Shown here piece after piece: positions 11,159 to 43,369 of a stretch of DNA of 64,000 nucleotides. The stretch is taken from the NCBI RefSeq assembly GCF_046294525.1, contig NZ_JBKBKQ010000001.1:231263-295262 (forward strand). The letters are read 5' to 3'. How positions within the stretch are numbered: the first letter of the stretch is position 1; every line of letters starts with the position of its first letter. A model generated the notes under the pieces. It searched no databases, was not told the DNA's origin, and worked only from the letters and a program-made list of their open reading frames with translations. The stretch is from Acidovorax sp. (GTDB lineage Bacteria > Pseudomonadota > Gammaproteobacteria > Burkholderiales > Burkholderiaceae_C). The position numbers were made by a program, and so were the translations under genes.

Positions 11159-11176
11159 GCGCTGGAGGCCAAAAAC

Positions 11177-18988: not shown

Positions 18989-18997
18989 GATTTATGG

Positions 18998-19057
18998 TCA
19001 AAATGGCCTCTAGCGCTTATTGGATAAGCGCTAGCAGCTATCAAAACAGTAGTATCC
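18998..19057 (+). repeat. copy B of ~55-60 bp palindromic repeat family (CTAGCGCTTAT-TGG-ATAAGCGCTAG perfect palindrome)
   Basis: Lies immediately 3' of tRNA-Arg and upstream of hsdM; aligns with the copies at 8787, 26281, 44668 and 50490. Confidence 0.6.
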
Positions 19058-19149
19058 AAAGAAGAAGCAACCCCGTGGCAGGGTCTTCGCAGTGTGTGCG
19101 GCGGGCCTGCCCGCTTGACGGCCCCTTGCAGGCCACACACCGCAGCCAC

Positions 19150-22713: not shown

Positions 22714-22715
22714 GC

Positions 22716-23216: not shown

Positions 23217-23391
23217 AGCCCCGGCACACGGATGTGCAAGGGCTTCGGATACTCCTTCTACACGTGGTAGATGAGCTGGGCTGATTGTAGCGGTGCAAGC
23301 AAATCAAGGCATTCCGAATGTTGTATTACCCACAAAAAGCGAAAAGCATACTGGCGGCGCGGGGCCGCTGCTGGGGAGTTGCCTGTGGGGC

Positions 23392-23453
23392 TCCGAACAT
23401 TCGCAGCTGAGGTCCGAACATTTACAGCTCAGCTCCGAACATTCGCAGATACC
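23392..23453. repeat. 3 tandem ~21-bp direct repeats (TCCGAACATTCGCAGCTGAGG-like)
   Basis: Read directly in the AT-richer intergenic region upstream of fic. Confidence 0.6.
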
Positions 23454-23620
23454 AAAAGCCGCGCGATGCCGAGAATCTCCGGCCACTTGCGCTTGTCCGA
23501 GGCGCAGGCGCTAATCAACGCGGTTTGAAACTGAACAGCTATGAAAGTGGTCTTTCACAGCGGCCCGACCTTTAAAGAGTTCTTTCACAGCTTGCCGGAC
23601 GACAAGCTGGGCGTCGCTGA

Positions 23621-23651
23621 CATGTATAGAAATCCGCGTTTTCTATACATG
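23621..23651. promoter_or_regulatory. perfect 12-bp inverted repeat CATGTATAGAAA-N7-TTTCTATACATG (candidate operator upstream of fic)
   Basis: Read directly; a second AAATCCG(C/T)GTTTT motif repeats ~25 bp downstream. Confidence 0.4.
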
Positions 23652-23764
23652 TCGCAGTCCACATGCTTAAAAATCCGTGTTTTTTGTACAGATGCTGGCT
23701 AACATGGTGAAGCCATTGCGTTTTTTCGCCATGTTTCCCCCTCCCCCACTCTGGATGCACCGGC

Positions 23765-24841
23765 ATGCCTTTTGACCGCAGCCAACCCCACAACGACCTG
23801 CCCCTGCTGCCGCCCGCAGTAGAGCTGGAGAGCAAGGCTGTGCTCAAGCAGGCGATTGCGGCCAACCGGGTGCTGGCCAACCTGCGCGGGCTGGCGGCGC
23901 AGATTCCGAACCAGGGCGTGCTGATCAACAGCATCGTGCTGCAGGAAGCGCGCTTGTCGTCGGAAATTGAAAACATCGTCACCACCAACGACGAGCTGTA
24001 TCGCGCCGACGCGGACGCTGACGGCAAGGCCGATGCCCATACCAAGGAGGTGTTGCGCTACCGCGAGGCGCTCTACCACGGCTTTGCCGCGCTGAAAGAC
24101 CGCCCTTTGAGCACCAATCTGTTCATAGAGATAGCCCAGCGCATCAAGCAGATGGATTTGCAGGTGCGCGCCGTGCCCGGCACGGCTTTGAAGAATGAGC
24201 GGGGCGAGGTGGTGTACACGCCGCCTGTGGGCGATGCGGTGATTCGCGACAAGCTGTCCAACCTTGAAAAGTTCATCCACGCCGATGACGACCTCGACCC
24301 GCTGGTAAAGATGGCGGTCATGCACTACCAGTTCGAGGCGATTCACCCGTTCCCGGATGGCAACGGCCGCACGGGGCGCATCCTGAACCTGCTGTTTCTG
24401 GTGGAAAAGGGCTTGCTGGACATTCCGGTGATGTTCCTGTCGCGCTACATCATTGCCCACCGTGCGGCCTACTACGAGGGTTTGCGCCGGGTGACGGAAG
24501 AGCAGGACTGGGAGAACTGGCTGCTTTACATGCTGCGTGCGGTGGAAAGCACGGCTCAGCAGACGTTTGATCAGGTCAACCGCATCCGTGACTTGATGGA
24601 GCAGGTGCGCGAGCGTGTGCAGCGCGAAGCGCCTGGCGTGTACAGCAAAGACCTGATCGAGGTGATCTTCAAGCAGCCCTATACAAAAATCCAGTTCGTG
24701 GTGGACGCTGGCATTGCCAAACGGCAAACCGCGTCCGGTTACCTGCAAACCCTGGCGGGCCTGGGCGTGCTGCGCGAAAGCAAGCACGGGCGCGAGAAGT
24801 ACTACATCAACGACGCCTTGTTGGCAGAGCTGGTGGGTTGA
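23765..24841 (+). CDS. fic: Fic/Doc-family protein (AMPylation-type Fic)
   Basis: Canonical Fic motif HPFPDGNGRTGR, sitting between hsdS and hsdR, which is a well-known association. Confidence 0.85.
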   Translation: MPFDRSQPHNDLPLLPPAVELESKAVLKQAIAANRVLANLRGLAAQIPNQGVLINSIVLQEARLSSEIENIVTTNDELYRADADADGKADAHTKEVLRYREALYHGFAALKDRPLSTNLFIEIAQRIKQMDLQVRAVPGTALKNERGEVVYTPPVGDAVIRDKLSNLEKFIHADDDLDPLVKMAVMHYQFEAIHPFPDGNGRTGRILNLLFLVEKGLLDIPVMFLSRYIIAHRAAYYEGLRRVTEEQDWENWLLYMLRAVESTAQQTFDQVNRIRDLMEQVRERVQREAPGVYSKDLIEVIFKQPYTKIQFVVDAGIAKRQTASGYLQTLAGLGVLRESKHGREKYYINDALLAELVG

Positions 24842-24921
24842 CCATATGGTGATGGCATCGACAGATCACGATAACTTGTCGATTTTCTTTGTTTTTTTAA
24901 ACATATTCTCCCCATCTGTCG

Positions 24922-27900
24922 ATGGCATCGACACATCCGCCACCTCTCAGCCCCGGACCTGACCGCATGACCGAAGACCAGCTCGAACGCGAAACCCTGG
25001 CCTGGCTGCAGGACGTGGGCTACACCCACATCGCCGGTCCCGACATCGCCCCCGACGGCCCCGCGCCCGAGCGCAGCGACTACCGCCAGGTGCTGCTGGC
25101 AGGCCGCCTGAAGGCAGCGCTGATGCGGCTGAACCCTGCCGTGCCCGTGGTGGCCATCGACGACGCGCTGGCGCAGGTGCAAGACCTGGGCGTGCCCGCG
25201 CTGCTGGCGGCCAACCGACGGTTTCACCGGCTGCTGGTGGCGGGCGTGCCGGTGCAGTACCAGCGCGGCAACGAGACAGTGGGCGACTTCGTGCGCCTGG
25301 TGGACTGGGCTGCGCCCGAGCGCAATGAGTGGCTGGCGGTGAACCAGTTCAGCGTGCGCGGGCCGCGCCACACGCGCCGGCCCGACGTGGTGCTGTTTGT
25401 GAACGGCCTGCCGCTGGTGCTGCTGGAGTTAAAAAACCCCGCCGACCAGGCCGCCAGTGTGTGGAAGGCGTACGACCAGATCCAGACGTACAAAGAGCAG
25501 ATCCCGGACCTGTTTAACACCAACGAGGTGCTGGTGATTTCAGACGGCACCGAGGCACTGCTGGGGTCGCTGAGCGCAAGCGCCGAGCGCTTCATGGCGT
25601 GGCGCACGATTGACGGCGTGGCGCTGGACCCGCTGGGCCAGTTCAACGAGCTGCAGACACTGGTGCGCGGCGTGCTGGCGCCGCAATACCTGCTGGACTA
25701 CCTGCGCTACTTTGTGCTGTTTGAGGACGATGGGCAGCTGGTCAAAAAGATCGCGGGCTACCACCAGTTTCATGCGGTACGCGCCGCCATTGCGCAGGTG
25801 GTGGCTGCTGCCACGCCGGGCAGCGGCGCAGACCCGGCCATCAAGGGCAAGGGCGGCGTGGTGTGGCACACGCAGGGCAGCGGCAAGAGCATCACCATGA
25901 CCTGCTTTGCCGCCCGCGTGATGCAGGAGCCCGCGCTGCAGAACCCCACCATCGTGGTCATCACCGACCGCAACGACCTGGACGGCCAGCTGCTGGGCGT
26001 GTTTGGCCTGGCGCAAGACCTGCTGCGCGAGCAGCCCGTGCAGGCCCGCACCCGGCAAGAGCTGCGCACGCTGCTGGCCAACCGCCCCTCGGGCGGCATT
26101 GTGTTTGCCACCATCCAGAAGTTCATGCCCAGCGAGGACGAAGACAGCTACCCCATGCTGTCGGACCGCCACAACATCGTGGTGATTGCCGACGAGGCGC
26201 ACCGCACGCAGTACGGGTTTGAGGCGCGACTGAAGGTGCGCAAGGCTGATGTGAAGGCCGATGGGAAGGAAGATTTCAAGCCAAATCAGGCTATAGCGCT
26301 TGATACACAAGCGTCACCAGCTACAAATAATGTAGCAAACCCCATCGCCACAGGCAGCGGCACCGCCCCCGCACACCGCGCCGAATTTGCGCCGCCCACC
26401 TACCGGGCAGGCACCGAAGCGAACACAGTGGAACACGCCCGCGAGCATTACCAGGTGGGCTACGCCCAGCACCTGCGCGATGCTCTGCCCAACGCCACCT
26501 TTGTGGCGTTTACCGGCACCCCGGTGAGCGGCACCGACCGCGACACGCGCGCCGTGTTTGGCGACTACATCCACGTGTATGACATGCAGCAGGCCAAGGA
26601 AGACGGCGCCACCGTGGCCATCTACTACGAAAGCCGCATGGTGAAGCTGGGCCTGAAGGCCGACGAGCTGCCCAGCATTGACGCCGAGGTGGACGAGCTG
26701 GCCGAGGACGAAGAAGAAAGCGTGCAGTCGCGCCTGAAAAGCCGCTGGGCGGCGCTGGAGCAGGTGGTGGGCGCCGAGCCCCGCGTGGCGCGCGTGGCGC
26801 AGGACCTGGTGGCGCATTTTGAAGAGCGCAACACCGCCCAGCTCGGCAAGGCCATGGTGGTGGCCATGAGCCGCGACATCTGCGCGCACCTGTACAACGA
26901 GATCGTGCGCCTGCGCCCCGACTGGCACAACGCCGACCCCGAGCTGGGCGCCATCAAGATCGTGATGACCGGCAGCGCCAGCGACAAAGCGCTGCTGCGC
27001 CCGCACATCTACAGCGCGCAGGTGAAAAAGCGGCTGGAAAAGCGCTTCAAAGACCCGGCCGACCCGCTGCGCATCGTGATCGTGCGCGACATGTGGCTGA
27101 CCGGCTTTGACGCGCCCTGCGTACACACCCTGTATGTAGACAAGCCCATGAAGGGCCATAACCTGATGCAGGCCATTGCCCGCGTGAACCGCGTGTTCAA
27201 GGACAAGCAGGGTGGCCTGGTGGTGGACTACATCGGCATTGGCAACGAGCTGAAAGCCGCCATGAAGGAATACACCGCCGCCCAAGGCCGGGGCCGCCCC
27301 ACGGTGGACGCGCACGAGGCCTTCAGCGTGGTGCTGGAAAAGCTGGATGTGCTGCGCGCCCTGCTGCACGGGTTTGACTACAGCGGCTTTCTGACGGGCG
27401 GCCACCGCGTGCTGGCGGGTGCTGCCAACCACGTGCTGGGCCTGCCGCGCCAGGCCGGGCAAGACGGCAAAAAACGGTTTGCCGACACTGCCCTGGCGAT
27501 GAGCCAGGCCTTTACCCTGAGCTGCACACTGGACGAGGCGAAGGGCGTGCGCGAGGAAGTGGCCTTCATGCAAGGCGTCAAGGTCATCCTGACCAAGCGC
27601 GACATCACCGCCAAGCAACGCACCGACGAGCAGCGCGAGCTGGCAGTGCGCCAGATCATCAGCCATGCAGTGGTGTCTGAAAGTGTGGTGGACATCTTTG
27701 ACGCCGTGGGGTTGGAGAAGCCCAACATCGGCCTGCTGGACGAAGGCTTTCTGGCCCAGGTGCGGGCGCTGCCCGAACGCAACCTGGCGGTGGAGTTGCT
27801 GGAGCGACTGCTGGAGGGCGAGATCAAGAGCCGCTTTGCCAGCAACGTGGTGCAAAGCAAAAAGTTCTCGGAGCTGCTGGGCGGCGTGATCGTGCGCTAC

Positions 27901-28296
27901 CAGAACCGCAGCATTGAAACCGCCCAGGTGATGGAAGAACTGCTGGACATGGCCCGCCAATTCCGCGAGGCACATGGTCTGGCCGACAAGCTGGGGCTGA
28001 GCGAAGACGAGGTGCGCTTTTACACCGCGCTGGCCGAGAACGAATCTGCCGTACGCACGCTGAGCGACGACACGCTGAAAAAAATCGCCCACGAACTGAC
28101 CGACAACCTGCGCAAAAACCTGACGGTGGACTGGACCGAGCGCGAGAGCGTGCAAGCCAAGCTGCGCCTGATGGTCAAACGCATCTTGCGCAAGTACAAA
28201 TACCCGCCGGACCTGGAAGCTGCAGCGGTGGAGCTTGTGCTGCAACAAGCGCAGGCATTGGGTGAAGAGTGGAGCGAGCTGGCTGCAGCGGTCTGA
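24922..28296 (+). CDS. hsdR: Type I R-M endonuclease/helicase subunit HsdR
   Basis: SF2 helicase motifs (GSGKS, DEAHRTQ, FTGTP); the start may be the second Met at 24967; it contains an unusually long low-GC insertion between DEAH and the FTGTP motif. Confidence 0.9.
26281..26340 (+). repeat. degenerate in-frame copy C of the ~55-60 bp palindromic repeat inside hsdR
   Basis: CAAATCAGGCTATAGCGCTTGATACACAAGCGTCACCAGCTACAAATAATGTAGC aligns with copy B; there is a local GC dip. Confidence 0.45.
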
Positions 28297-28378
28297 ACAA
28301 ACCGACACAAAAAACACCCTCTGTCGTTTGCCACACACCACGCTTGCAATTGGTGACAAACGAACACATTGACATGAT

Positions 28379-28882
28379 ATGTCGATGCACCTATTCTCCC
28401 GATCCATGCAGGCACACGGACTTTCTCCCGGCCGCCTGCCCCACCCGCACGACGAAGGAGACGCCGTGGCCACTTTGCTGGAACAACTCAACAACCTGGA
28501 CGTGCTGACTTCGGCACTCATGGGCGGTGTGGCGGTGCAGTTGCAGCCGATTGCGGGCGATGTGCCCGTGGTGCAGGTCAGCATTGAGGGGCGCGATGAG
28601 CTGCCCATCTTCGTGACCTGCTCGGACATGCAGATGATCTGCCTGTGCTACCTGTGGACCGATGCCGATGTGCGGCCCGAGCGCCGGGCCGAACTGATGG
28701 AGGCGCTGCTGGACCTGAACCCTTCCGTGCCCCTGTCGGCCTTTGGCCGCGTGGATGGCCGCTTTGTGCTGGTGGGCGCCCTGGCCCGCGCAGCGCGTGC
28801 TGAAGACGTGGCGCACGAGGTGGCCGTGCTCAGCGACAACGCGCTGGATGCGCTGGATGCGCTGGCGGAATTCCTGCATTGA
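28379..28882 (+). CDS. YjfI-like (DUF2170) or YbjN-type chaperone-like protein
   Basis: 167 aa, acidic, lying immediately upstream of a PspA-family gene as in the enterobacterial yjfI-yjfJ arrangement; the family assignment is from memory. Confidence 0.45.
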   Translation: MSMHLFSRSMQAHGLSPGRLPHPHDEGDAVATLLEQLNNLDVLTSALMGGVAVQLQPIAGDVPVVQVSIEGRDELPIFVTCSDMQMICLCYLWTDADVRPERRAELMEALLDLNPSVPLSAFGRVDGRFVLVGALARAARAEDVAHEVAVLSDNALDALDALAEFLH

Positions 28883-28961
28883 ACAGGCGCCCCGTCATCC
28901 CCGCTTCTTCCTCTTCACACCGTTTCGGTCCCGCAATTTTCGACATTGACAGGAGAACACC

Positions 28962-29723
28962 ATGTCGGTCATCAAGAAACTCGTCACCCTGCTGCGCGGC
29001 AGCGCCCGCGAACTGGGCCAGAGCGTGGTCGATGGCAACGCCACGCGCATTTATGAACAAGAGATCATCGACGCCAAGGCCAGCATCGCCGAAGCGAAGA
29101 CCGAACTCACCGGTGTGATGGCCAAACAGATGCAGACGGCGCGCGACATCGAGCGCATCAAGGGCGACATGCTGCGCCACGAAGACATGGCCGTGCAGGC
29201 GCTGGACAAGGCTAACGAAGGCCTGGCGCTGGAAGTGGCCGAGCGCGTGGCCGGCCTGGAGGCCGAGCTGAACGAGCAGACGCAGGCCCACGCCAGCTAT
29301 GCGATGCAGGTGTCGCGCCTGAAGGACCTGATCCGCAGCGCGGAAGGCCGTGTGCGAGAGCACGAGCGCGAGATCGGCATTGCCAAGACCACCGAGAGCG
29401 TGTACCGCGCCACGCAGAGCATCTCTGAAAGCATCGGCGCCACGGGTTCGCAGCTGACCAGCGCGCGCGATTCGCTGGAGCGCATCAAGAAGCGCCACGA
29501 AGACCTGGCCGACCGCATGGCCGCCGCCGAGCAGCTGGACCAGGAGTTCGGCCACCGCGCGCTGGAGCGCAAGCTGGCAGACGCGGGCATTGGCGACAGC
29601 GACAAGGTGCGTGCCGCCAAGGTGATGGAGCGCCTGCGCGCCCGCCAGGCCGGGGCTGCCGCTGCAACCACCGCCGCCGCCCCCCACGCGCTGCCCTCCC
29701 CCACGCCCACACAGGCCCCATGA
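28962..29723 (+). CDS. PspA/IM30 (ESCRT-III-like) family protein, YjfJ-like
   Basis: 253 aa, all coiled-coil, with a PspA-like N-terminus (MSVIKKLVTLLRGSARELGQSVVD) and an Ala/Pro-rich tail. Confidence 0.8.
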   Translation: MSVIKKLVTLLRGSARELGQSVVDGNATRIYEQEIIDAKASIAEAKTELTGVMAKQMQTARDIERIKGDMLRHEDMAVQALDKANEGLALEVAERVAGLEAELNEQTQAHASYAMQVSRLKDLIRSAEGRVREHEREIGIAKTTESVYRATQSISESIGATGSQLTSARDSLERIKKRHEDLADRMAAAEQLDQEFGHRALERKLADAGIGDSDKVRAAKVMERLRARQAGAAAATTAAAPHALPSPTPTQAP

Positions 29724-30097
29724 GCCCCGCACCGCGCAAGCCCGCGCGGTGGCAGGGCTCCGAGCCCGCTCTGCGCGCCGTCCAGGTGGCGTTTGACGTG
29801 GAAGAAGCCGTGATGGAGGCCATCCGCGTGGCGGCTTTCCATGCCAACGTGTCCACCTCCACGCAGATCCGCAGCGTACTGGACTTGCCCGTGGCGGCCC
29901 GGCCCAAGCGGCCGCGCCTGACGGTGACGCTGGACGCAGCCGACTACGAGTTGCTGGCGCAGCGCTACGGCCTCACACCGGAAGACCGCCTGGGCATCAA
30001 GGAGGCGGCCACGCGCGAGCTGATTGCTTTTGTGCAGCAGCCACCGCGCGCGGCCCGGGCGGGCACCGGCGGCGGCAAGAAGAAAAACAGTCGATAA
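29720..30097 (+). CDS. hypothetical protein with two ribbon-helix-helix-like repeats
   Basis: 125 aa; a beta-alpha-alpha pattern is repeated twice (LRAVQVAFDVEEAVMEAIRV..., RLTVTLDAADYELLAQRYGL...); ATGA overlap with the PspA-like gene. Confidence 0.35.
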   Translation: MSPAPRKPARWQGSEPALRAVQVAFDVEEAVMEAIRVAAFHANVSTSTQIRSVLDLPVAARPKRPRLTVTLDAADYELLAQRYGLTPEDRLGIKEAATRELIAFVQQPPRAARAGTGGGKKKNSR

Positions 30098-30197
30098 AAA
30101 ATTAAGAGAACCGCTTCACAAACAAGACATAAAAAGCGGTTCCCGGTGTCTTCGGTTCACAAACCAACACACAACACAACGAGGGGGGATTTGATTC

Positions 30198-30842
30198 ATG
30201 TTTGCCAGTCTTCTTGGGGCGGTCTCCGCGTTCCCGACCGCCATCTACACCGTGCTGTTGGGCGTGGTGCTGGTGTATTGGCTGATGGCCATGCTGGGCA
30301 TGGTGGACTTCGAGTCCAGCGGCATCGACGTGGCGATTGACGCCCACGCCGACGCCAGCGTGGACGACCTGGGCACCATTGCCAGCTATGTGGTGGCCTT
30401 CGGCCTGCACGGGGTGCCGTTCTCCATTGTGGTGAGCCTGCTGGTGCTGGTGGGATGGACGCTGTCCTTCCTGGCCGGCGTCACGCTGCTGGCCTGGGTG
30501 CCCACCGACATCCTGCGCTGGGCAGCTGGCGCCGTGGTGCTGGTGGTGACTGCGGCGCTGTCGGTGGTGATCACGGCGCGCATCGTGCGGCCGCTGCGCG
30601 GGCTGTTTGTGCACCACACGGCGCAAAGCAATGCCTCGCTGGTGGGCCAGACCTGCAAGGTGCTGACCGGCGTGGTGGACGAGCGCCAGGGCCGTGCCGA
30701 AGTGGCCCAGCGCGGCGCCAGCATCAACATCCGCGTGTGGTCGCCCAGCCCCAACACCTTGAAGCGCGGCGACGCCGCGCTGATCACCGAATACGACCCG
30801 GGCAGCCACCGCTACCTGGTTGTGCCGCTGCCACCCGCGTGA
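30198..30842 (+). CDS. YqiJ/NfeD-like inner membrane protein (DUF1449-like), flotillin partner
   Basis: 214 aa with N-terminal TM helices and a C-terminal OB-like soluble domain, directly upstream of the flotillin gene as in yqiJ-yqiK. Confidence 0.6.
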   Translation: MFASLLGAVSAFPTAIYTVLLGVVLVYWLMAMLGMVDFESSGIDVAIDAHADASVDDLGTIASYVVAFGLHGVPFSIVVSLLVLVGWTLSFLAGVTLLAWVPTDILRWAAGAVVLVVTAALSVVITARIVRPLRGLFVHHTAQSNASLVGQTCKVLTGVVDERQGRAEVAQRGASINIRVWSPSPNTLKRGDAALITEYDPGSHRYLVVPLPPA

Positions 30843-30937
30843 TGTGGCGCCCCACGGGGCGTCCGCCGGGCCAGGCTCCGTCGTTTTTCCAAGTTTCCTT
30901 TTCTCTCTCCACCCTTTCACCAGAAAGCGTACTTCTC

Positions 30938-33064
30938 ATGCCGCAATCCTTCATGGTCATCCTGATTGCCGTTGGCATCTTTGTCTTCCTGATCCTGGCG
31001 ATGTTCGCCATGTTCGCGAAGTTCTACCGGAAGGTGGAGCAAGGCCACGCGCTCATCATCAACACCCTGCGCTCCGAGCCCGAAGTCACCTTCACCGGCC
31101 GCATGGTCTACCCCATCATCCACAAGGCCGAGCTGATGGACATCTCGGTCAAGACCATCGAGATCGACCGCTCGGGCGACCAGGGCCTGATCTGCGCGGA
31201 CAACATCCGCGCCGACATCAAGGTGAAGTTCTTCGTGCGGGTGAACAAGACGGCCGAGGACGTGCTGCGCGTGGCGCAAGGCATTGGCTGTGCGCGCGCG
31301 TCCAACCACGAGATTCTGGAAGACCTGTTCTCGGCCAAGTTCTCCGAGGCGCTCAAGACCGTGGGCAAGTCGCTCGACTTCGTGGACCTGTACCAGGCGC
31401 GCGATGCCTTCCGCGACAAGATCATCGAGCAGATCGGCGACGACCTGTCGGGCTATGTGCTGGAAGACGCGGCGATTGACTACCTGGAGCAGACGCCGCT
31501 GTCCAAGCTTGATGCCAACAACATCCTCGACGCGCAGGGCATCAAGAAGATCACCCAACTCACTGCAGTGGAACACGTGGTGACCAATGAGCTGCGCCGC
31601 AACGAGGAAATGCAGATCAAGAAGAAGAACGTGGAAACGCAGGAAGCCCTGCTGGAGCTGGAGCGCCAACAGGCCGACGCCACCGCCCGCCAGGCGCGCG
31701 AAGTGGCCAGCGTGAAGGCGCGCGAAGAAGCCGAAACCGCCAAGGTGCGTGCCGAAGAACACACACGCGCCGAGATGGCGCGCCTGCAGTCCGAACAGTT
31801 GCTGGCCGTGCAGAACGAGAACGTGTTGCGCGAGAAGGAAGTGGCCGAGAACAACCGCAAGCGTGCGGTGGTGATCGAGCAGGAGCGCGTGACCCGCGCG
31901 CAAGACCTGGAAGTGGTGGCGCGCGAGAAGGAAGTGACGCTGCAACGCATTGAAAAAGACAAGGCGGTGGAGGTACAGAAGAAGGCCATTGCCGACGTGG
32001 TGCGCGAACGCATCGTGGTCGAACGCACGGTGGCCGAGCAGGAAGAAGCCATCAAGGAAGTGCGCGAAGTGGCCGAGGCCGACCGCACCCGCAAGGCCGT
32101 AGTCATCGGCGCCGAAGCAGCTGCCGAAGAAAAGGTGATCCTGGAAGTGAAGGCTGCTGAAGCCCAGGAACGCAAGGCGCGCCACAAGGCCGCCGAAGAC
32201 CTGGTGCTGGCCGACGCCCGTCTGAAGGTGGCCGAGCGCGAGGCCGAAGCCAAGAAGCGCGAAGCCGAAGGCATTGAAGCCCTGACCGCCGCGCCCGGCC
32301 TGGCCGATGCCAAGGTGCAGATGGCCAGCGCCAGCGCCAAACTGGCCACCATGGAAGCCGAAGCCAGCGGCAAGGAAAAAATTGGCCGTGCCGAAGCCCA
32401 GGTGACCGAAGCCCAGGCACATGCCGACGCCGTGGGCCTGCGCGCCCGCATGGAAGCTGAAGCCGCCGGCAAGGAAAAGGTCGGCCAGGCCGAAGCCTTG
32501 GTGCGCACCGTGGACGCCGAAGCCCTGGCCAAGATGGGCGACGCCGAAGCGCACAACATCGACGTGAAGTTCAACGCCGAGGCGCGCGGCCTGAAGGAAA
32601 AGTTCGAGGCCATGAAAGCCATGAGCACCGAAACGCGCGAGCACGAGGAGTACCGCATGCGCCTGGAGCGCGCGCACCTCGAAACCCTGAAGCAGATCGA
32701 GGCGCAGCAGCACATCGCCAAGGAACAGGCCGAAGTGCTGGGCGTGGCGCTGAAGAACGCGCGCATCGACATCGTGGGCGGCCAGGGCGACTACTTCGAC
32801 AGCTTTGTGCGTGCGCTGTCCGTTGGCAAGGGCATCGACGCGGCCGTGAACAAAAGCGACACGCTGCAGGTGGCCTTCAAAGACCAGCTCAGCGGCGAGC
32901 GCGACGTGGTGGAAGACGTGAAACAGATCCTGGGCGCTGCAGGCCAGTCGGCAGGCGAGCTGCAGAACCTGAGCGTCTCGGCCCTCATCGCACGGGTGAT
33001 GCAGACCGGCACCGACAGCCAGAAGCAGGCCTTGCAGCAACTGGCACAGAGCTTTCGCAAGTAA
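30938..33064 (+). CDS. flotillin-family protein (SPFH/band 7 domain, YqiK-like) with a long coiled-coil extension
   Basis: N-terminal TM segment then an SPFH domain (...PIIHKAELMDISVKTIEIDRSG...ICADNIRADIKVKFFVRV...), followed by ~450 aa of E/A/K-rich coiled coil; 708 aa. Confidence 0.85.
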   Translation: MPQSFMVILIAVGIFVFLILAMFAMFAKFYRKVEQGHALIINTLRSEPEVTFTGRMVYPIIHKAELMDISVKTIEIDRSGDQGLICADNIRADIKVKFFVRVNKTAEDVLRVAQGIGCARASNHEILEDLFSAKFSEALKTVGKSLDFVDLYQARDAFRDKIIEQIGDDLSGYVLEDAAIDYLEQTPLSKLDANNILDAQGIKKITQLTAVEHVVTNELRRNEEMQIKKKNVETQEALLELERQQADATARQAREVASVKAREEAETAKVRAEEHTRAEMARLQSEQLLAVQNENVLREKEVAENNRKRAVVIEQERVTRAQDLEVVAREKEVTLQRIEKDKAVEVQKKAIADVVRERIVVERTVAEQEEAIKEVREVAEADRTRKAVVIGAEAAAEEKVILEVKAAEAQERKARHKAAEDLVLADARLKVAEREAEAKKREAEGIEALTAAPGLADAKVQMASASAKLATMEAEASGKEKIGRAEAQVTEAQAHADAVGLRARMEAEAAGKEKVGQAEALVRTVDAEALAKMGDAEAHNIDVKFNAEARGLKEKFEAMKAMSTETREHEEYRMRLERAHLETLKQIEAQQHIAKEQAEVLGVALKNARIDIVGGQGDYFDSFVRALSVGKGIDAAVNKSDTLQVAFKDQLSGERDVVEDVKQILGAAGQSAGELQNLSVSALIARVMQTGTDSQKQALQQLAQSFRK

Positions 33065-33175
33065 GCAAAAACCATAGCATCTGGCGCTTGGTGCACAAGG
33101 GCTTCAGATGTTTTTCATTTGAAACCCAATGAAATCAAGCGCCAAAAGCTCTCATTTTCATAGCACAACACAGCC

Positions 33176-33751
33176 ATGACCCCACGCTTGCATTGCAGCT
33201 GCACCCTGCGCTCCGTGCTTAAAAACGTGGCGCTGGACGAAGGCCTTCCCGCACTGGCCTGTCCCGACTGCGGCGCCGTGCTGCTGAAGATGGACGACTG
33301 GCGCCGCTGGCGCAGCCGCTCGCCTGCGGCAGTGGCGCTCGGTGTTTCCGTAGCCGCTGATGCCGTCTCTGCCGACCCAGGCCGTGCGCGCGCCTGCCCG
33401 GCCTGCACACGGCTCATGGAACGCCTGCCCTTGGACGCCGCCGGTGCCCTGCGCCTGGACCGTTGCAGCACTTGCCAGACGGTGTGGCTGGACCCGGGCG
33501 AATGGCAGGCCCTGGTGGAGCGTGGCCTGGCGTCACAGCTGGACGCTCAGATGTCGGACGGCGGTCAACGCCGCCTGCAGGCCGAACGTCTGCATGCAAG
33601 CCGCATTCAGGCTTTGCGCCAACGCCACGGCGACGCTTGCATGGACGAAGTGCTGCGCATCCGCCGCTGGCTGGCCGAACAGCCGCGCCGTGACGAAGTG
33701 CTGGCGCTGTTGCAGGCGCCCGAAGCGGCAGCGCCCTCACAAAGAAACTGA
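33176..33751 (+). CDS. zinc-ribbon domain protein (hypothetical)
   Basis: 191 aa with two Cys clusters (CPDCG...CPAC...CSTC); GC-rich coding. Confidence 0.45.
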   Translation: MTPRLHCSCTLRSVLKNVALDEGLPALACPDCGAVLLKMDDWRRWRSRSPAAVALGVSVAADAVSADPGRARACPACTRLMERLPLDAAGALRLDRCSTCQTVWLDPGEWQALVERGLASQLDAQMSDGGQRRLQAERLHASRIQALRQRHGDACMDEVLRIRRWLAEQPRRDEVLALLQAPEAAAPSQRN

Positions 33752-33817
33752 AATAAGACGACGGGCAACGCATATCAACGCTCTCGCGTCTGCCTTAAAT
33801 TTGAACTGGATAGCTGC

Positions 33818-35227
33818 ATGACCTACAAATCCACCTGGCAATTGCCCGGCCATAACCCGCCAATGCTTGTCCAGCTTTCCATCGTTCCCTATGGCGCCAA
33901 CGGCACAGCTTCTTTCCGAATCTCAAGCTGCGTACTTAAAAAGGACCCGAGTCCCACCATTTTTCCCGGCGGCGAGGTGCTTCAGCTGACGCAGCCGGAC
34001 GGCGACCGAATCGTTGTGCAGAAGTATCTGGACTGGATTGCAGCCAACCCTGGGGTAATTCCGCGGTTCGACAACAACAACGGTCTTTTCCCTGAGTACT
34101 TCTTGGAGCCACAAGGTCGGCGCAAGACAGCCACTGAACTCCTGCTCGACGAAGCCATGTTGCGAGTGGAGCTGGGAGACTACGAGATTGCCCAGACCCT
34201 TCTCAACTCCATCGTTGAGCCTTCAGACTGCATGTTTCACCACACCGTGCTGCGCCGTCTTTATGCCAACTGGGCCACCGACGCTGCTGGCGCACCGGCA
34301 CAAGTGCATGCACAACGGGCAGTGCACCATGCAGAAGTCATCGTTGACATCTATCGCAAGATGGAGTCGGTGCATGAATACCCTGACAGATATGTTTGCT
34401 ACTACTTCGGTGACTACAGCACCGCCGGCTCTCAAGTCTCCAGCGCATGCGCGACCTTGGTGAGACATCGGTTACAGCAGCGGCAATTCCAAGCTGCGCT
34501 GGAAATCGCCGCATACGGAATCGCCGCAAATCGCTGGGACAGCGACTTGCGTGAACTGCAGATTCGCGCCCTGATGGCTATGGGCCGCAATGAGGAGGTT
34601 TGGCCGATATACGCCCTAAATCATCGCGGTATCGGCCCCATGCCGGAGGTAACCGAAACGGAAGGCTATCGCGCCTACATACGCGCGCAGTCTGAAGAAG
34701 CGCAGACCCAAGAGAAAAAGCGCCGCGCCAGCGTCGTCTTGCGCTATCACGATAGCCCTCTCCTCACCGACACAGAGCAGGCTGCATGGAAGGCACGGTA
34801 TCTGAATCTGCCGCAGAACTTTCTGTCCTGGGTCTCCAGCGGCCAGCGTACGCATCTGAAGGGCAGCGTGGAAACGGACGAGTACGAATACCGTCTGTTC
34901 AACCTGCAACAAAGCCAAGAATGGCACACCGACTTCATGGGGTGGCTCAATCTGCACGCAAAAAGCAGCCCAGACTTTCATGCGGAGATTTGGCAACACA
35001 TCCACGCAAGCGGCATTGATCCCGAACGCATGACTCCCATCCTAGGTGATACACACACGCCAGATGGCTTTCTGGTGCGATGCGACGGCGGGCCCGGAGA
35101 GTATGGCGCCGTCTACTTCTGGAGCCATGAGGAACTGCCAGTGTTCGAAAAAATCGCTGACAGCGCCCAAGACCTAATGCCGTGGCTTGCGACCGCAATA
35201 AGAGAAGGCAAGCCATTCATTTTGTAA
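33818..35227 (+). CDS. hypothetical protein with C-terminal SUKH-1 (SMI1/KNR4) immunity-like domain
   Basis: 469 aa; the C-terminal ~130 aa carry the SUKH-1 hallmarks LPQNFLSWV ... DGGPGEYGAVYFWSHEELPVFEKIADSAQDLMPWL; the gene is markedly lower in GC than its flanks. Confidence 0.5.
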   Translation: MTYKSTWQLPGHNPPMLVQLSIVPYGANGTASFRISSCVLKKDPSPTIFPGGEVLQLTQPDGDRIVVQKYLDWIAANPGVIPRFDNNNGLFPEYFLEPQGRRKTATELLLDEAMLRVELGDYEIAQTLLNSIVEPSDCMFHHTVLRRLYANWATDAAGAPAQVHAQRAVHHAEVIVDIYRKMESVHEYPDRYVCYYFGDYSTAGSQVSSACATLVRHRLQQRQFQAALEIAAYGIAANRWDSDLRELQIRALMAMGRNEEVWPIYALNHRGIGPMPEVTETEGYRAYIRAQSEEAQTQEKKRRASVVLRYHDSPLLTDTEQAAWKARYLNLPQNFLSWVSSGQRTHLKGSVETDEYEYRLFNLQQSQEWHTDFMGWLNLHAKSSPDFHAEIWQHIHASGIDPERMTPILGDTHTPDGFLVRCDGGPGEYGAVYFWSHEELPVFEKIADSAQDLMPWLATAIREGKPFIL

Positions 35228-35313
35228 CCGCCTTGCTTCTCAATGCATGCAAATTTGATAGCGCGTAGCGCTCATTGGATTAACGCCACAGCGACTTTTA
35301 ACAAAATTCCGCC

Positions 35314-38300
35314 ATGACCTCCATGTCCGAAACGCACGATGACGCCATCGACACCAGCGTGGCCGAAAGCAGCAGCTATGAGTTGCTGAAGAAACGCCTG
35401 GAAGCCCAGGGCGACACGCTGTTGTCCAAAGCACAGGCGCTCAACGCGGCGCGCATTGGCCAGTTCGGCCAGCGCGACCAGCAACTGCTGATGCGTTTGC
35501 GTGCGCGCACCGAGCACAGCTGCGTGGCGCGTGACCTGGCCTACATCGGCGGCAACCGGCTGCTGTTTGGCTACAACGTGTTCATGGGCCTCAAGCGCGA
35601 AACGCGGGTGGAGGACGTTTTCGCGCTGTACGAGTTGGCGCACCACGATGCGACCCGTGAAGAAGCGGGCGCTCCCGACAGCGACGAGCTGGTGCAGGTG
35701 CCGATGGCGGGCGGCTTTCTGGACGACCCACGTTTTGTGGCCGACTTCAACGAGCTCTACACCTACTACAAGCAGGCCACGCTGCAGTTGCTGCGCCCCA
35801 CGCCCGAATTTTTGTTGGCCGCGTTTCAGATCGGCCAGCAGGCGCAGGACATTCGAGTGTTTCGCTGGCGGCGTGAAAGCGATGGCTCGCTGAAGTACGT
35901 GGACAACCGCGGCGAGCGCGACCTGGCGCCGCCGCCCAGCCACGATTTCAGCTGGACGCCGCTGACACGCGAACACCATGTGGGCGGCGCGCACCCGCAC
36001 ATCAATGTGCTGGACACCATCTTTGTGGAAACCACCGGTGGCACGCTGACGGTGAAGGTGGAGAACAACACCGAGTCTGGCCTGGGCATCTACGATGAGC
36101 CCGTGGAAGACGCCAACCAGGCGCTGGGCGATGCCGAGTTTGCCTACGCCAAGCTGGGCCTGTTGATCCTGCTGCAGGTGCGCCCCTACCGCGAGAGCAC
36201 CACGCGCTACCTGGTGTTCAACCAGCGCACGCGGCAGGTGGTGCGCATCGACGCCATTGGCGCATCGTGCATGCAGCTGCCGGAGGACCACGGCATCATC
36301 TTCCCCGGCGGGTACTACCTGCAGTCGGGCGAGACCAAGCGCTTTGACCTGCCGCCCGAGCTGACCGAGCAGCTGCGCTATACGCGCATGAAGCGCTCGC
36401 CGAACGGGGAAGACGTGGCCTACATCTTCTACGGCACGGTGCCCCCGCCGCAGGGCAGCCCGGCCACGCTGGATGCGGGCTGCTATGCCATCTTCACCTA
36501 CAACCTCATCGACAAGTCGCTCGCGCCGCCCGTCCTGGCCGATGGGTACAGCACCTTCCCGGACGGGCGCATGCTGGTGTTCCAGGCCGCGCGCGGCGAG
36601 GCCGCGCGCGTACACCCTATGCAGCTGTGGCGCACACCCTTTGCCACCGAGGAACACGCCAGCCGCCAGCCCGCCGGCACGGGCTTCTTTGGCCGCGTGG
36701 GCAATGCCGACCTGGTGCGCGGCATCTCGGACCTGCTGGGCATTGCCCGCATGGTGCGCGAGCAGGTGCCCACGCGCACTGCGTACGAAGACCTGATACG
36801 CCAGTGCCAGCGCGCACGCGACGCCTACTTCTGGCTGGACGCCGGCGAGGTGCAGAACGCTGCGGCTGACCTGTCGGCCATCGAGCAGGCCGCGCAGGCC
36901 ACGCTGGGCGAGTTTGAAAAGGTTGAGAGCATCCGCCAGGACACGGCCCGCGCATTGCACAAGGCCGAAGGCCAGCAGCGCGAGCTGATGACCGCCATTG
37001 CCAGCCAGATGTGGCGCAGCCCCAGCGACTTTGTGCAGGCGCTCAACCGCCTGCGCCAGCGCCAGGGCGAGCTGCACCTGCTGCGCGAGCTGCGCTATGC
37101 CGACCTGGCCGCCGTGGATGCCATGGCCGCGCAGCTCACGGCCGAGCAGCAGCGCGTGGGCGAACGCGCGCTGCAGTTCCTGTCCGACGAAAAAGCCTTT
37201 GACGGCCAGCGCCAGGCCCTGACCAAGGTGGCCACCACCCTGCCCCAGGCCGCCACCGCCGCGCAACTGGCCGAGCAGTTGGACACGCTGGACGCCGAAG
37301 CCGCCAGCCTGGACCTGCTAAGCGAACAACTGGGCAACCTGCCCGGCGGCGATGCCGTGCAGCGCACCACCATCCTCGACCGCATTGCGCTGCTGTACGC
37401 TGACATCAACCGCCTGCGCGCCGATGCCCGCGCGCGCCGCCGCAACCTGGGTGCGGCCGAGCAGCGGGCGGAGTTTGGCGCGCAGTTCAAGCTGTTCGGC
37501 CAGGCCGTGGAAAACGCGCTGGAGCTGTCGGACACGCCCGAAAAGTGCGACGAGGCGCTGACCCGCCTGCTGGCGCAGCTGGAAGACATCGAAGGCCGCT
37601 TTGCCGAGCAGGAAGAGTTTCTGGCCGACATCGCCACCCAGCGCGAAAGCGTGTACGAGGCCCTGTCGGCCCGTCGCCAAAGCCTGGTGGATGCACAGCA
37701 GCGCCGCGCCAAGGCCCTGGCCGATGCGGCCGGGCGCGTGCTGGACGGCGTGCCGCGCCGCATTGCCGGCTTTGGCGAGCTGGCCCAGGTGCACAGCTAC
37801 TTCGCGTCCGACCCCATGCTGACCAAGCTGCGCGAGCAGGTGGCCGAGCTGCGCCGCCTGGGCGCGGCCGTGGCGGCCGACGACATCGACACGCGCCTGA
37901 AGACCGCCCGCGACCAGGCCGTGCGCGCGGTGCGCGACCAGCGGGAGCTCTCGGCCGGCGCCGAGGGCGGCCTGAAGCTGGGCAGCCACACCTTCACCAT
38001 CAACAAGCAGCCGCTAGACCTGACCCTCGTCGCCCACGGCAATGGACTGGCCTGGCAGATCACCGGCACCGACTACCTGGCCCCGGCGCACGACGCGCGG
38101 CTGCAGGTGCTGCGCCCCTTCTGGCAGCAGGCCCTGGTGTCGGAGACGCCGCAGTTGGCACGCGCCGAATACCTGGCCGCCGAATGGCTGGAAGCCCAGC
38201 AGCGCGGCGAGGCCGAGCCCGGCTGGAGCGAGCTGCTGGTGCAGCTGGCCGAGCATGCGCGCACGGATGGCATCGATGGCACCGAGCCCACCACCCCGCC

Positions 38301-40944
38301 CGCCGTGCTGCTCGATTCACTACGCCGCTTTGCCGCCAGCCGCTATCAAGAGGGCTACCAGCGCGGCATCCACGACGACGACGCCCTGGCCATCGTGCGC
38401 GTGCTCGCGCCCATCCAGGATGCGGCCGGGCTGCTGGTCTATGGCCCATCCGAGCGCGCGCTGGCCAAGCTCTACTGGCACCTGGGCCTGCGCGAGGAGA
38501 GCCGCAACTCCCTGGCCCGCCGCGCTCGCAGCGCCCAGCACATCGCGCAGCTGTTTTCACAGACCACGCTGCGGGACACGCTGGAGGCCGAGGCTGCGCA
38601 GGGTCTGCGCCAGTTTGTGGAGCAGCACCCCGTGCTGGCCGATGAGTGGCTGCCGGAGCTGGCCCAAGCACTGGGAACCGACAGCGCGGAAGGCGGGAGC
38701 GACGAGGCTTTGCTGCGCACGCTTGTGGAAGAAGCCAGCGCCTACCTGGTGCGCGAGCTGGCCCACACCGACATCGGAACGGCCGAGCTGGCCTCCGTCA
38801 CGCCGCAATGGGTGATCAGCAACACGGGCGCGGACCTGGTGCAGGCCCTGCAGCGCGCGCTGGACCATGGGGGCCTGGCCAGCGCCTGGCAGCGCGACCT
38901 GGCGGCCGCCGAGCCGCTGGAGCGCTGGCGCCTCGCGCGCGGCTGGCTGCGCGCGTTTGCCGCATCGCAGGCGGATGCCGACGGTGCCACGCCAGCCCTC
39001 GCCTGGATTGACGATGCCGCCACGGCGCTCACCTTCCAGGGTACGCGCCGCCGCATCAACGCCACGCTGGACGCGCAGGTGGCCGGGCTGCGCAGCGAGC
39101 ACATGCGCATCCAGCACGGCGCGCTGGCGTTCAACCTCAACGACTTTCGCCGGCGCGTGCGCCATCACCGCAGCCACGCGGTGCGCGGCTTTTTGCAGTT
39201 GCAGGCCCTGCGGCACGAGCTGCTGGTGCAAGAAAAAGCGCGCCTGCACCTGGCCCAGTTCCAGGCCAAACCGCTGGCCACCTTTGTGCGCAACCGGCTC
39301 ATCGACGAGGTGTACCTGCCGCTGGTGGGCAACAACCTGGCCAAGCAACTGGGCGCCGCAGGCGAGAGCGCACGCACCGACCGCATGGGCATGCTGCTGC
39401 TGATCTCGCCGCCCGGCTATGGCAAGACCACGCTGATGGAATATGTAGCCAACCGCTTGGGCCTGGTGTTTGTGCGCATCAACTGCCCGGCCCTGGGCCA
39501 TGGCGTGACCAGCATCGACCCCAGCACCGCGCCCAACAGCGCGGCGCGGCAAGAGCTGGAAAAGCTCAACCTGGGCCTGGCTATGGGCAGCAACGTGATG
39601 CTGTACCTGGACGATATCCAGCACACGCACCCCGAGTTTTTGCAGAAGTTCATCGCTCTGGCCGACGGCACCCGCCGCATTGAAGGCGTGTGGCAGGGCC
39701 AGCCCCGCACCTGGGACATGCGCGGCAAGCGCTTTGCCATCGTGATGGCGGGCAACCCGTACACCGAATCGGGCGACGTGTTCCGCATCCCCGACATGCT
39801 GGCCAACCGCGCCGACATCTACAACCTGGGCGACGTGCTCTCGGGCCGCGAGGCCGTGTTTGCGCTGTCGTACATCGAAAACAGCCTGACCGCCCACCCC
39901 GTGACCCAGCCCCTGGCCGCGCGCGAACCGCAGGACGTGCACGTGCTGGTGCGCATGGCCCAGGGCGAGGCCATCGACACCAGCAGCTTTGCCCACCCCT
40001 ACAGCGCGGTGGAGCTGCAGGAACTCAAGGGCCTGCTGCAGCGCCTGTTCAAAGTGCGCGACGTGCTGCTGAAGGTGAACCTGGCCTACATCGCCTCGGC
40101 CGCGCAGGACGACCGCTACCGCGAGGCGCCGCCCTTCCGCCTGCAAGGCAGCTACCGCAACATGGCGCGCCTGGCGCCGCAGGTCACGCCGCTGATGCAG
40201 GACGACGAGCTCGATGCGCTGCTGCGCGACCACTACCGCGGCGAGGCGCAGACTCTGACCACTGGCGCCGAAGAAAACTTGCTGCAGCTGGCGCAGCTGA
40301 TCGGCCGCCCCACGCCCCAGGAGCAAGAGCGCTGGGACCAGATCCGGGGCGACTACCAGCGCCAGCGCAAGATGGGCGGCGCCGAGGACGACCCGAGCGT
40401 GCGCGTGACGCGTGGGCTGCTGGACATTGCCCGCAGCGTGGAAGCCCTGCAGCCCCGCCAGGCCACCGAGCAGCTCACGCAGCAGATCGCAAAGCCGTTG
40501 GCCGCTATTGCGCAGCAGCTGGCCCAGCCCTCGCCCGCGCAGCAGGCCCAGGCCGCGGCGTTGGACCGCATCGAACCCGCGCTGAACGCCCTGGCGGAGC
40601 TGGCCCAGCACCTGCAAAAGGGCACCACCCAGACCCAGGCGCAGATGCGCGCCAGCCTGGACGCCACGGCAGAGGCGCTGCTAGCCCTGCAGGCCAGCAC
40701 CCAGGTCCTGCACGCCCACAGCGACCAGGCCCAGAGCCAGCGCATGGTGGACGCACTGCTGTCGCTGTCGGTCACCTACCGCCAGCTCATCATGCCGCTG
40801 GTGCGGGCGGTGGAAAGCCGCGTGGGGGCCGACGCCAAGATGCACCAGGAGGTGGAACGACTGGAGGGCATGATCGACAACCTGCGCGAGGCTCCGCCAT
40901 CAAGGGAAGCGCCGCCACCAAAGAAGAAGCCCCATCAGACTTAG
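35314..40944 (+). CDS. giant (1876 aa) uncharacterised protein with C-terminal-proximal MoxR/midasin-like AAA+ ATPase module
   Basis: Walker A LLISPPGYGKTT, Walker B VMLYLDDIQH and sensor-1 IVMAGNPYTESGD at about residues 1370-1480; roughly 700 aa of coiled-coil-like Ala/Leu/Gln/Arg-rich sequence precede it, and an N-terminal ~500-aa globular region; the frame stays open across 5.6 kb of high-GC DNA. Confidence 0.8.
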   Translation: MTSMSETHDDAIDTSVAESSSYELLKKRLEAQGDTLLSKAQALNAARIGQFGQRDQQLLMRLRARTEHSCVARDLAYIGGNRLLFGYNVFMGLKRETRVEDVFALYELAHHDATREEAGAPDSDELVQVPMAGGFLDDPRFVADFNELYTYYKQATLQLLRPTPEFLLAAFQIGQQAQDIRVFRWRRESDGSLKYVDNRGERDLAPPPSHDFSWTPLTREHHVGGAHPHINVLDTIFVETTGGTLTVKVENNTESGLGIYDEPVEDANQALGDAEFAYAKLGLLILLQVRPYRESTTRYLVFNQRTRQVVRIDAIGASCMQLPEDHGIIFPGGYYLQSGETKRFDLPPELTEQLRYTRMKRSPNGEDVAYIFYGTVPPPQGSPATLDAGCYAIFTYNLIDKSLAPPVLADGYSTFPDGRMLVFQAARGEAARVHPMQLWRTPFATEEHASRQPAGTGFFGRVGNADLVRGISDLLGIARMVREQVPTRTAYEDLIRQCQRARDAYFWLDAGEVQNAAADLSAIEQAAQATLGEFEKVESIRQDTARALHKAEGQQRELMTAIASQMWRSPSDFVQALNRLRQRQGELHLLRELRYADLAAVDAMAAQLTAEQQRVGERALQFLSDEKAFDGQRQALTKVATTLPQAATAAQLAEQLDTLDAEAASLDLLSEQLGNLPGGDAVQRTTILDRIALLYADINRLRADARARRRNLGAAEQRAEFGAQFKLFGQAVENALELSDTPEKCDEALTRLLAQLEDIEGRFAEQEEFLADIATQRESVYEALSARRQSLVDAQQRRAKALADAAGRVLDGVPRRIAGFGELAQVHSYFASDPMLTKLREQVAELRRLGAAVAADDIDTRLKTARDQAVRAVRDQRELSAGAEGGLKLGSHTFTINKQPLDLTLVAHGNGLAWQITGTDYLAPAHDARLQVLRPFWQQALVSETPQLARAEYLAAEWLEAQQRGEAEPGWSELLVQLAEHARTDGIDGTEPTTPPAVLLDSLRRFAASRYQEGYQRGIHDDDALAIVRVLAPIQDAAGLLVYGPSERALAKLYWHLGLREESRNSLARRARSAQHIAQLFSQTTLRDTLEAEAAQGLRQFVEQHPVLADEWLPELAQALGTDSAEGGSDEALLRTLVEEASAYLVRELAHTDIGTAELASVTPQWVISNTGADLVQALQRALDHGGLASAWQRDLAAAEPLERWRLARGWLRAFAASQADADGATPALAWIDDAATALTFQGTRRRINATLDAQVAGLRSEHMRIQHGALAFNLNDFRRRVRHHRSHAVRGFLQLQALRHELLVQEKARLHLAQFQAKPLATFVRNRLIDEVYLPLVGNNLAKQLGAAGESARTDRMGMLLLISPPGYGKTTLMEYVANRLGLVFVRINCPALGHGVTSIDPSTAPNSAARQELEKLNLGLAMGSNVMLYLDDIQHTHPEFLQKFIALADGTRRIEGVWQGQPRTWDMRGKRFAIVMAGNPYTESGDVFRIPDMLANRADIYNLGDVLSGREAVFALSYIENSLTAHPVTQPLAAREPQDVHVLVRMAQGEAIDTSSFAHPYSAVELQELKGLLQRLFKVRDVLLKVNLAYIASAAQDDRYREAPPFRLQGSYRNMARLAPQVTPLMQDDELDALLRDHYRGEAQTLTTGAEENLLQLAQLIGRPTPQEQERWDQIRGDYQRQRKMGGAEDDPSVRVTRGLLDIARSVEALQPRQATEQLTQQIAKPLAAIAQQLAQPSPAQQAQAAALDRIEPALNALAELAQHLQKGTTQTQAQMRASLDATAEALLALQASTQVLHAHSDQAQSQRMVDALLSLSVTYRQLIMPLVRAVESRVGADAKMHQEVERLEGMIDNLREAPPSREAPPPKKKPHQT

Positions 40945-42850: not shown

Positions 42851-43369
42851 ATGCAATACCGCCGCGCCTTCACCCCGGGCGCCACTTTGTTCTTCACCGT
42901 CGTCACCCACGACCGCCGCCCCCTCTTGCAAAGCGAGGACGCCGTGGAAACGCTGCGCGCCGCTTTCCGCAGGGTGCGCTCGGCGCGACCCTTCGTGATC
43001 GACGCCATGGTGGTGCTGCCGGACCATGTGCATTGCATCTGGACACTGCCGCCAGACGACGCGGATTTTGCGACCCGGTGGCGGCTGATCAAGACTTGGT
43101 TCACCAAGCACGGCCCTGCGAACCAGCGAGGCCCGCAGAATGCCGCCCGCGCCGCCAAGCAGGAGCAAGCCGTTTGGCAACACCGCTACTGCGAGCATCG
43201 AATCCGGGACGAAGAGGACTACGCCCGGCATGTGGACTACATCCACTACAACCCGGTCAAGCACGGGTGGGCGAAATCTGCGGGGGGCATGGCCGTATTC
43301 GAGTTTTGGGCGGTATGTGGCGGCGGGGATTTATCCGCCCGATTGGGGGCACTCCGCGCCAGATCTTGA
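42851..43369 (+). CDS. REP-associated tyrosine transposase (RAYT, IS200/IS605 TnpA-like)
   Basis: 172 aa with an HUH motif (HVHCIW), a catalytic Tyr region (HYNPVKHGW) and an N-terminus (YRRAFTPGATLFFT) typical of IS200-like Y1 transposases; flanked by REPs. Confidence 0.8.
   Translation: MQYRRAFTPGATLFFTVVTHDRRPLLQSEDAVETLRAAFRRVRSARPFVIDAMVVLPDHVHCIWTLPPDDADFATRWRLIKTWFTKHGPANQRGPQNAARAAKQEQAVWQHRYCEHRIRDEEDYARHVDYIHYNPVKHGWAKSAGGMAVFEFWAVCGGGDLSARLGALRARS

Follow-up and report, generated by a model that had tools for sequence, protein, structure and literature searches.

A divergent SUKH-1 protein with a TPR-like module, X469, encoded in a variable slot of a PspA/flotillin/AAA+ operon in an Acidovorax-like bacterium

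Classical SUKH immunity proteins are single-domain proteins of ~150 aa, often encoded in tandem arrays beside toxins. Polyimmunity proteins include fusions of SUKH with other immunity domains and Imm66–Imm69 proteins joined to SUKH and TPR repeats; immunity genes that lack an adjacent cognate toxin have been regarded as pre-emptive back-ups (Zhang et al., 2012, PMC3482391). An operon of CesT-like, PspA, band-7/flotillin and AAA+ genes has been described by Ravi et al., 2024 (PMC11237479), and the bac cluster PA3732–PA3729 of P. aeruginosa is related to it (PMC10948618). Here we analyse X469, a gene for a 469-aa protein with a C-terminal SUKH-1 (SMI1/KNR4) domain, in a 64,000-nucleotide stretch of DNA (contig NZ_JBKBKQ010000001.1; hereafter the window) from an Acidovorax-like member of the Comamonadaceae, whose giant AAA+ ATPase is 97% identical at its N-terminus to that of an Acidovorax metagenome-assembled genome (MAG). 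The genes of the window match the described operon in content and order, and the operon's "novel AAA+ ATPase with coiled coil and beta-propeller" is the match for the window ATPase (PMC11237479); X469, however, is not a described component. Unlike SUKH-1 immunity proteins, X469 has its SUKH domain fused to ~300 aa of other domains and is never found beside a toxin gene or in a tandem SUKH array. It resembles the polyimmunity proteins in being multi-domain, with SUKH joined to a helical repeat module, and differs from them in having one recognisable immunity domain and in standing outside any polyimmunity locus. The superfamily is known, and X469 adds to it a new member that is rare, divergent and unusually located.

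The AlphaFold2 model of X469, built on a 20-sequence alignment, has a predicted local distance difference test score (pLDDT) of 90.2 and a predicted template modelling score (pTM) of 0.73; a 4-sequence alignment had given an unusable model with a pLDDT of 54. The protein divides into three domains, namely an N-terminal α/β domain (N-domain), a TPR-like helical repeat domain, and the SUKH-1 domain (C-domain). The C-domain of the model runs in the order helix, helix, β-hairpin, helix, extra helix, four-strand meander, and helix, which is the element order of the SUKH topology given by Zhang et al., 2011 (PMC3113570). The extra helix, at aa 385–397 between the hairpin and the meander, sets the domain apart from known SUKH-1 (PF09346) domains such as those of B. 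subtilis YobK (PDB 2PRV), 3D5P, and Lin2918 (2ICG).

Searched alone against Pfam, NCBIfam and PADLOC, X469 yields sub-threshold matches or none. Its match to Pfam SMI1_KNR4 (PF09346) covers aa 330–453 and profile positions 17–122 of 125, with an E-value of 0.013 and 16.5 bits, below the cut-off of 25.4, and that to TPR_19 (E=0.0032) is also sub-threshold. The equivalent C-terminal region of four homologues exceeds the SMI1_KNR4 gathering score (P0005, 46.9 bits; P0010, 31.5; P0009, 30.5; P0007, 27.2), and when the family was scanned singly, 16 of the 20 sequences matched SMI1_KNR4 (E≤1) and 9 matched SUKH_6. X469 is placed in SUKH-1 by transitive homology via full-length homologues and not by its own Pfam score, and its C-terminal domain is supported as a divergent SUKH-1 domain. 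A sequence-only reading of this DNA had assigned the C-terminus to SUKH-1 from motifs, of which LPQNFLSWV and DGGPGEYGAVYFWSHEELPVFEKIADSAQDLMPWL are indeed present in the translated 469-aa open reading frame (ORF); the homologues' Pfam scores and the model topology bear this assignment out. Sequence searches of the PDB with a 4-sequence profile of the full-length protein and with profiles of the C-domain and the N-domain returned no SUKH chain.

The same reading had left the first 320 aa as a single unassigned domain. This part is instead composed of an α/β domain of ~100 aa, which still has no family, and a TPR-like scaffold of ~200 aa, which is made of helical hairpin repeats and matches TPR profiles or structures. 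Neither X469 nor its family members have a Pfam match or a known Imm family in the N-domain (aa 1–100), and among family members the N-domain is never found without the TPR module. In P0018, the N-domain and TPR module are joined to a different C-terminal sequence, which also weakly matches SMI1_KNR4. The only PDB sequence match of the N-domain, a weak one to the INO80 HSA region (E=0.005), was rejected as spurious; the matched segment, which we take to be helical, disagrees with the mostly β prediction for the N-domain.

When 1.84 billion cluster representatives were scanned exhaustively with HMMER, the X469 family had 22 matches at E≤0.001, most of them 460–480 aa long and alignable end to end, and a word-indexed set of 5.8 billion proteins contained three relatives. 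The family is a divergent, very rare SUKH-1 subfamily with a fixed N-domain/TPR/SUKH architecture. Loci of distant relatives were retrieved with the C-domain alignment. These members (30–35% identity; L086, L087, L092, L093, and L095–L098) are single genes in unrelated neighbourhoods, with a GC content close to that of their surroundings where the flanks are comparable, and no PspA, flotillin, DUF3686 or toxin gene was found near them. One relative, P0017 (L086, 10001–11083, a Pseudomonas MAG), carries the same SUKH subfamily domain behind a hydrophobic, apparently membrane-spanning N-terminus that substitutes for the N-domain and TPR module. A gene of immunity type with Ank repeats and Imm-NTF2 (L086, 13406–14353) lies 2.3 kb downstream of it.

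X469 differs from its surroundings in composition. Its GC content is 0.564, and 0.653 at third codon positions (GC3), compared with 0.661 for the whole window, 0.689 and 0.755 (GC and GC3) for the upstream zinc-ribbon gene, and 0.686 and 0.885 for the downstream ATPase gene. The deficit relative to its neighbours (GC ~0.69, GC3 0.76–0.90) is ~10–12 points, at the low end of the 10–15 points claimed from sequence alone. In a related locus, L010, the ATPase gene directly follows the zinc-ribbon gene across the junction TTC ATG AAC, where we read the zinc-ribbon stop and the ATPase start as overlapping; the window, by this comparison, carries an insertion of ~1.56 kb with AT-rich edges. No convincing flanking or terminal repeats of a mobile element surround X469. 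The sole candidate junction repeat is an imperfect direct repeat of 14 nt at 33621–33634 (AACGCCACGGCGAC) and 35282–35295 (AACGCCACAGCGAC), whose copies lie 1661 bp apart and bracket the zinc-ribbon 3′ end together with X469; it is probably due to chance.

The distribution of X469 agrees with its composition. We searched by tblastn 80 GTDB species-representative loci carrying the ATPase, out of 286 related genomic stretches found overall, and X469 was present in none of the 80, while most of them contained the other operon genes. The X469-free loci include those with ATPases 95% (L056) and 94% (L007/L062) identical to that of the window. Only the window and five metagenome contigs of one Acidovorax-like clade have X469 in the slot between the flotillin-like and ATPase genes. 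Four of the contigs (L001–L003 and L094) carry a full-length homologue of 91% identity. In the fifth, L005, a homologue of ~63% identity (777–2236) is split by a frameshift into ORFs of 152 and 345 aa and the zinc-ribbon gene is missing, although its flotillin-like and ATPase flanks share 97% and 86% identity with those of the window; the split copy must be a pseudogene or reflect an assembly error, in either case combined with fast divergence or allele replacement. We read X469 as an insertion in the operon and not as a conserved component. The low GC content and the absence from all 80 species-representative operons support a foreign gene that was horizontally acquired.

The slot itself is variable. 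In many loci the flotillin–ATPase interval is 20–230 bp and holds no gene, and it extends to ~600–700 bp with the zinc-ribbon gene, a frequent though non-universal occupant by tblastn, mostly in Variovorax and other betaproteobacteria. Between the zinc-ribbon and ATPase genes, L018 carries on the minus strand a ParE toxin gene (E=1.2e-17) and a ribbon-helix-helix antitoxin gene (9259–10124), and an antitoxin ORF homologous to the latter is found in L015 (9634–10035). In L007 (4924–5469) and L062 (9394–9939), a low-GC gene for a 181-aa PD-(D/E)XK-like protein (PDDEXK_5, E=3e-4; Mrr_cat, E=0.009; both below cut-offs) replaces the zinc-ribbon gene and X469, so that a nuclease-like gene and the SUKH gene alternate at one site. 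Rhodocyclales-like, Rhizobacter and Pseudomonas-group operons have a conserved TerB-like ORF of 79–82 aa in the slot (L043, 9537–9776; L044, 9184–9423; L048, 9650–9898; L074, 9557–9901, 114 aa as called). Its TerB match (E=0.0013) is below the cut-off, and the ORF may be another optional operon component.

Between X469 and its counterpart in L001, the ratio of nonsynonymous to synonymous substitution rates (dN/dS) is 0.17, pointing to purifying selection on all three domains. Given this low dN/dS and the homologues of 91% identity found at the same place in four metagenome contigs, we regard X469 as a real, constrained gene. Its dS of 0.23 is close to the 0.30–0.53 of its neighbours, so that X469 predates the split of the window and L001 lineages and was already carried by their common ancestor. 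The sequence-only reading was right to call the gene foreign; its "recent" acquisition needs the qualification that this means after the split from GW101-3H11-like Acidovorax strains and not after the last strain divergence. The suggested link to SUKH use by phages and viruses found no counterpart: tblastn retrieved no X469 relative from phage or plasmid collections, and a viral structure search (BFVD) returned only weak matches (E≥0.011), mainly annotated as TPR or glycosyltransferase. An origin from a phage, plasmid or virus was rejected as unsupported by these searches.

With moderate confidence, we interpret X469 as a horizontally acquired, stand-alone, orphan immunity-like SUKH-1/TPR binding protein that is carried as cargo in a variable operon slot and whose location there is probably incidental. 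The gene would have been acquired horizontally in an Acidovorax-like lineage, landing between the flotillin-like and giant AAA+ ATPase genes. Read-through from the operon promoter would account for its expression, with X469 playing no working part in the operon itself. A promoter-like site is present at 28369–28397 (consensus match only). X469 is on the operon strand, its spacers are 66 and 86 bp long, and no terminator-like site was found on the plus strand in 33000–35400, both X469 spacers included, by consensus matching; co-transcription with the operon is plausible for these reasons. The domain architecture, foreign origin, slot variability and selective constraint are established by the results above, whereas we infer the binding and immunity steps. 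The SUKH cleft, possibly aided by the TPR surface, would bind a protein toxin from competitors or another incoming protein, and the bound toxin would be neutralised or sequestered, making X469 an orphan or "polyimmunity-type" immunity protein.

We looked for a toxin partner in every context read. No toxin or secretion gene lies within ~10 kb of X469 in the window, consistent with the earlier observation that no toxin gene is adjacent; the genes within this distance encode the type I restriction-modification system, DUF3800, SoFic, the operon, an EamA transporter, an AsnC regulator, a Y1 transposase, a PanE reductase, and a histidine kinase. Nor is there a toxin or secretion gene beside the homologues in L001, L094, L086, L087, L092, L093, or L095–L098, and these contexts contain no tandem SUKH genes or polyimmunity locus. 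The suggestion that the giant ATPase hides a cryptic toxin module was rejected: Pfam gives only DUF3686, DUF7902 and AAA families in it and no toxin family, and the L056 ATPase, from an X469-free operon, keeps the C-terminal part (81% identity over query residues 2–633). A literature search on SUKH and anti-phage activity found nothing relevant.

Several of these observations count against an orphan immunity-like protein. An adjacent toxin gene was found neither in the window nor in any of the ~12 independent contexts read; because of this, the immunity role, though plausible, is argued by analogy. X469 is also unlike classical SUKH immunity proteins in its 469-aa length, its uncharacterised N-domain, and its invariably single occurrence. 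The same slot has kept at least two diverged forms of the gene (91% identity in L001–L003/L094 and ~63% in L005), which could signify a functional tie to the operon. Finally, SUKH proteins with non-immunity roles exist, namely Syd with SecY, Smi1/Knr4, and FBXO3 (PMC3113570).

The alternative that survives best assigns X469 to the PspA/flotillin/AAA+ membrane system as an accessory subunit specific to its lineage. Acting as an adaptor or regulator, the protein would use its SUKH/TPR surfaces to recruit a substrate or signal, such as a membrane-targeting protein that is damaged or foreign, to the ATPase or PspA. This alternative stays alive because X469 persists in the identical slot in two diverged forms, the ~63% form of L005 lying between flanks of 97% and 86% identity. 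The shared strand, short spacers and probable co-transcription agree with it, as do the purifying selection on X469 and the presence in the operon of a chaperone-like protein of CesT/Tir type. SUKH and TPR adaptors act elsewhere: FBXO3 is an F-box adaptor (PMC3113570), and Syd of E. coli, a SUKH-2 protein that binds SecY, offers a precedent for a SUKH fold serving a membrane machine and not a toxin. We nevertheless hold this alternative to be doubtful. All 80 species-representative operons do without X469, those with 94–95% identical ATPases included, and the ATPase shows no matching architectural change. Unrelated cargo (ParDE and the PD-(D/E)XK-like gene) enters the same slot, a frameshift interrupts the gene in L005, and the distant family members are nowhere near PspA, flotillin or DUF3686 genes.

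The neighbourhoods of these distant members lend themselves to another view, in which X469 is a general cytoplasmic interaction scaffold, e.g. a regulator or chaperone cofactor, unrelated to conflict and placed in the operon by accident. The distant members are single genes of native GC content beside metabolic, transport and signalling genes; no member has a toxin, type VI secretion system, Rhs or contact-dependent inhibition gene beside it; and adaptors commonly pair a TPR module with a small binding domain. We judge a scaffold to be unlikely, as the family is rare and very patchily distributed (22 matches in 1.84 billion representatives), the composition is foreign in the Acidovorax-like lineage, the slot also captures a toxin–antitoxin module and a nuclease-like gene, and the SUKH-only relative P0017 has an immunity-type gene nearby. 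These are features of a conflict gene rather than of a housekeeping gene.

It is more unlikely still, though conceivable, that the slot holds exchangeable cassettes, for specificity or effector function, in a PspA/flotillin/AAA+ membrane conflict system. X469 would then be a sensor or adaptor whose SUKH/TPR surfaces catch an incoming toxin or phage protein and pass it on to both the ATPase and the membrane-repair machinery, with the PD-(D/E)XK-like, zinc-ribbon and TerB-like proteins as alternatives in related strains. That X469 is a chance ORF without function or what is left of a decaying mobile element, as its GC3 of 0.65 against ~0.85 for the genome's genes and the frameshifted L005 homologue might suggest, is effectively refuted by its full-length conservation at 91% identity in four other contigs and its dN/dS of 0.17, and runs counter to the confident fold prediction (pLDDT 90) and to homologues of 30–35% identity that keep length and architecture.

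Table 1. Features of the operon, the inserted segment, and X469 in the window.
Feature	Coordinates	Strand	Remarks
DUF2170/CesT-like	28379–28882	+	Pfam DUF2170
PspA/IM30	28962–29723	+	Pfam PspA_IM30
125-aa gene	29720–30097	+	
214-aa membrane protein	30198–30842	+	
708-aa flotillin-like membrane/coiled-coil protein	30938–33064	+	label from position and literature
Zinc-ribbon protein, 191 aa	33176–33751	+	Pfam Zn_ribbon_TFIIB, E=1.5e-6
66-bp spacer	33752–33817	+	zinc-ribbon gene to X469; left edge of inserted segment
X469	33818–35227	+	469-aa three-domain protein (N α/β, TPR-like, SUKH-1); low-GC inserted gene
N-terminal α/β domain	33818–34117	+	aa 1–100; four strands, helix, fifth strand (model)
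TPR-like helical repeat domain	34130–34729	+	aa ~105–304
SUKH-1 (SMI1/KNR4) domain	34730–35227	+	aa ~305–469
86-bp AT-rich spacer	35228–35313	+	X469 to ATPase start; right edge of insert; GC 0.53–0.54
Giant DUF3686/DUF7902/AAA+ ATPase, 1876 aa	35314–40944	+	DUF3686 E=4.5e-176; DUF7902 E=1.4e-20; AAA_5; AAA

All genes of the operon, from 28379 to 40944, are on the plus strand (Table 1), and the order of the upstream core genes is the same in L001 and most related loci. The flotillin-like protein has no Pfam match. The longest ORF at its gene (30455–33064, 869 aa) overlaps the 214-aa gene, and the true start is that given in Table 1, to which the 708-aa orthologues in L001, L018 and L062 correspond. 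A literature search on DUF3686 found nothing. Immediately upstream, the operon is abutted by a defence island, a type I restriction-modification operon (hsdM, hsdS, and hsdR) at 18994–28296. Between hsdS and hsdR are a DUF3800 gene, an unassigned 168-aa ORF, and a Fic gene of the SoFic type (PADLOC SoFic, E=2.7e-123), and the stretch from hsdS to the 168-aa ORF is also low in GC (0.56–0.57). Further upstream, genes for a MoxR-like AAA+ ATPase, a GNAT acetyltransferase, and a VWA (CoxE-like) protein stand in a row at 9445–12364, followed by tamA/tamB at 12494–18858. On the other side, a gene for an IS200-like Y1 transposase (172 aa, E=1.4e-6), possibly associated with repetitive extragenic palindromes, is located at 42851–43369, beginning 1.9 kb past the ATPase gene; the AsnC-family and ApbA (PanE) genes of L001 abut, with no transposase gene called between them.

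Pfam annotation mostly misses the fixed architecture of the X469 family. The PspA/flotillin/AAA+ operon, which is widespread and uncharacterised, has an integration hot spot that takes up ParDE, a nuclease-like gene, and a SUKH gene as selfish or conflict-related cargo. If X469 is not tied to the ATPase, it would be an ordinary orphan immunity-like gene; if it does work with the ATPase, it would provide a first handle on what the operon senses.
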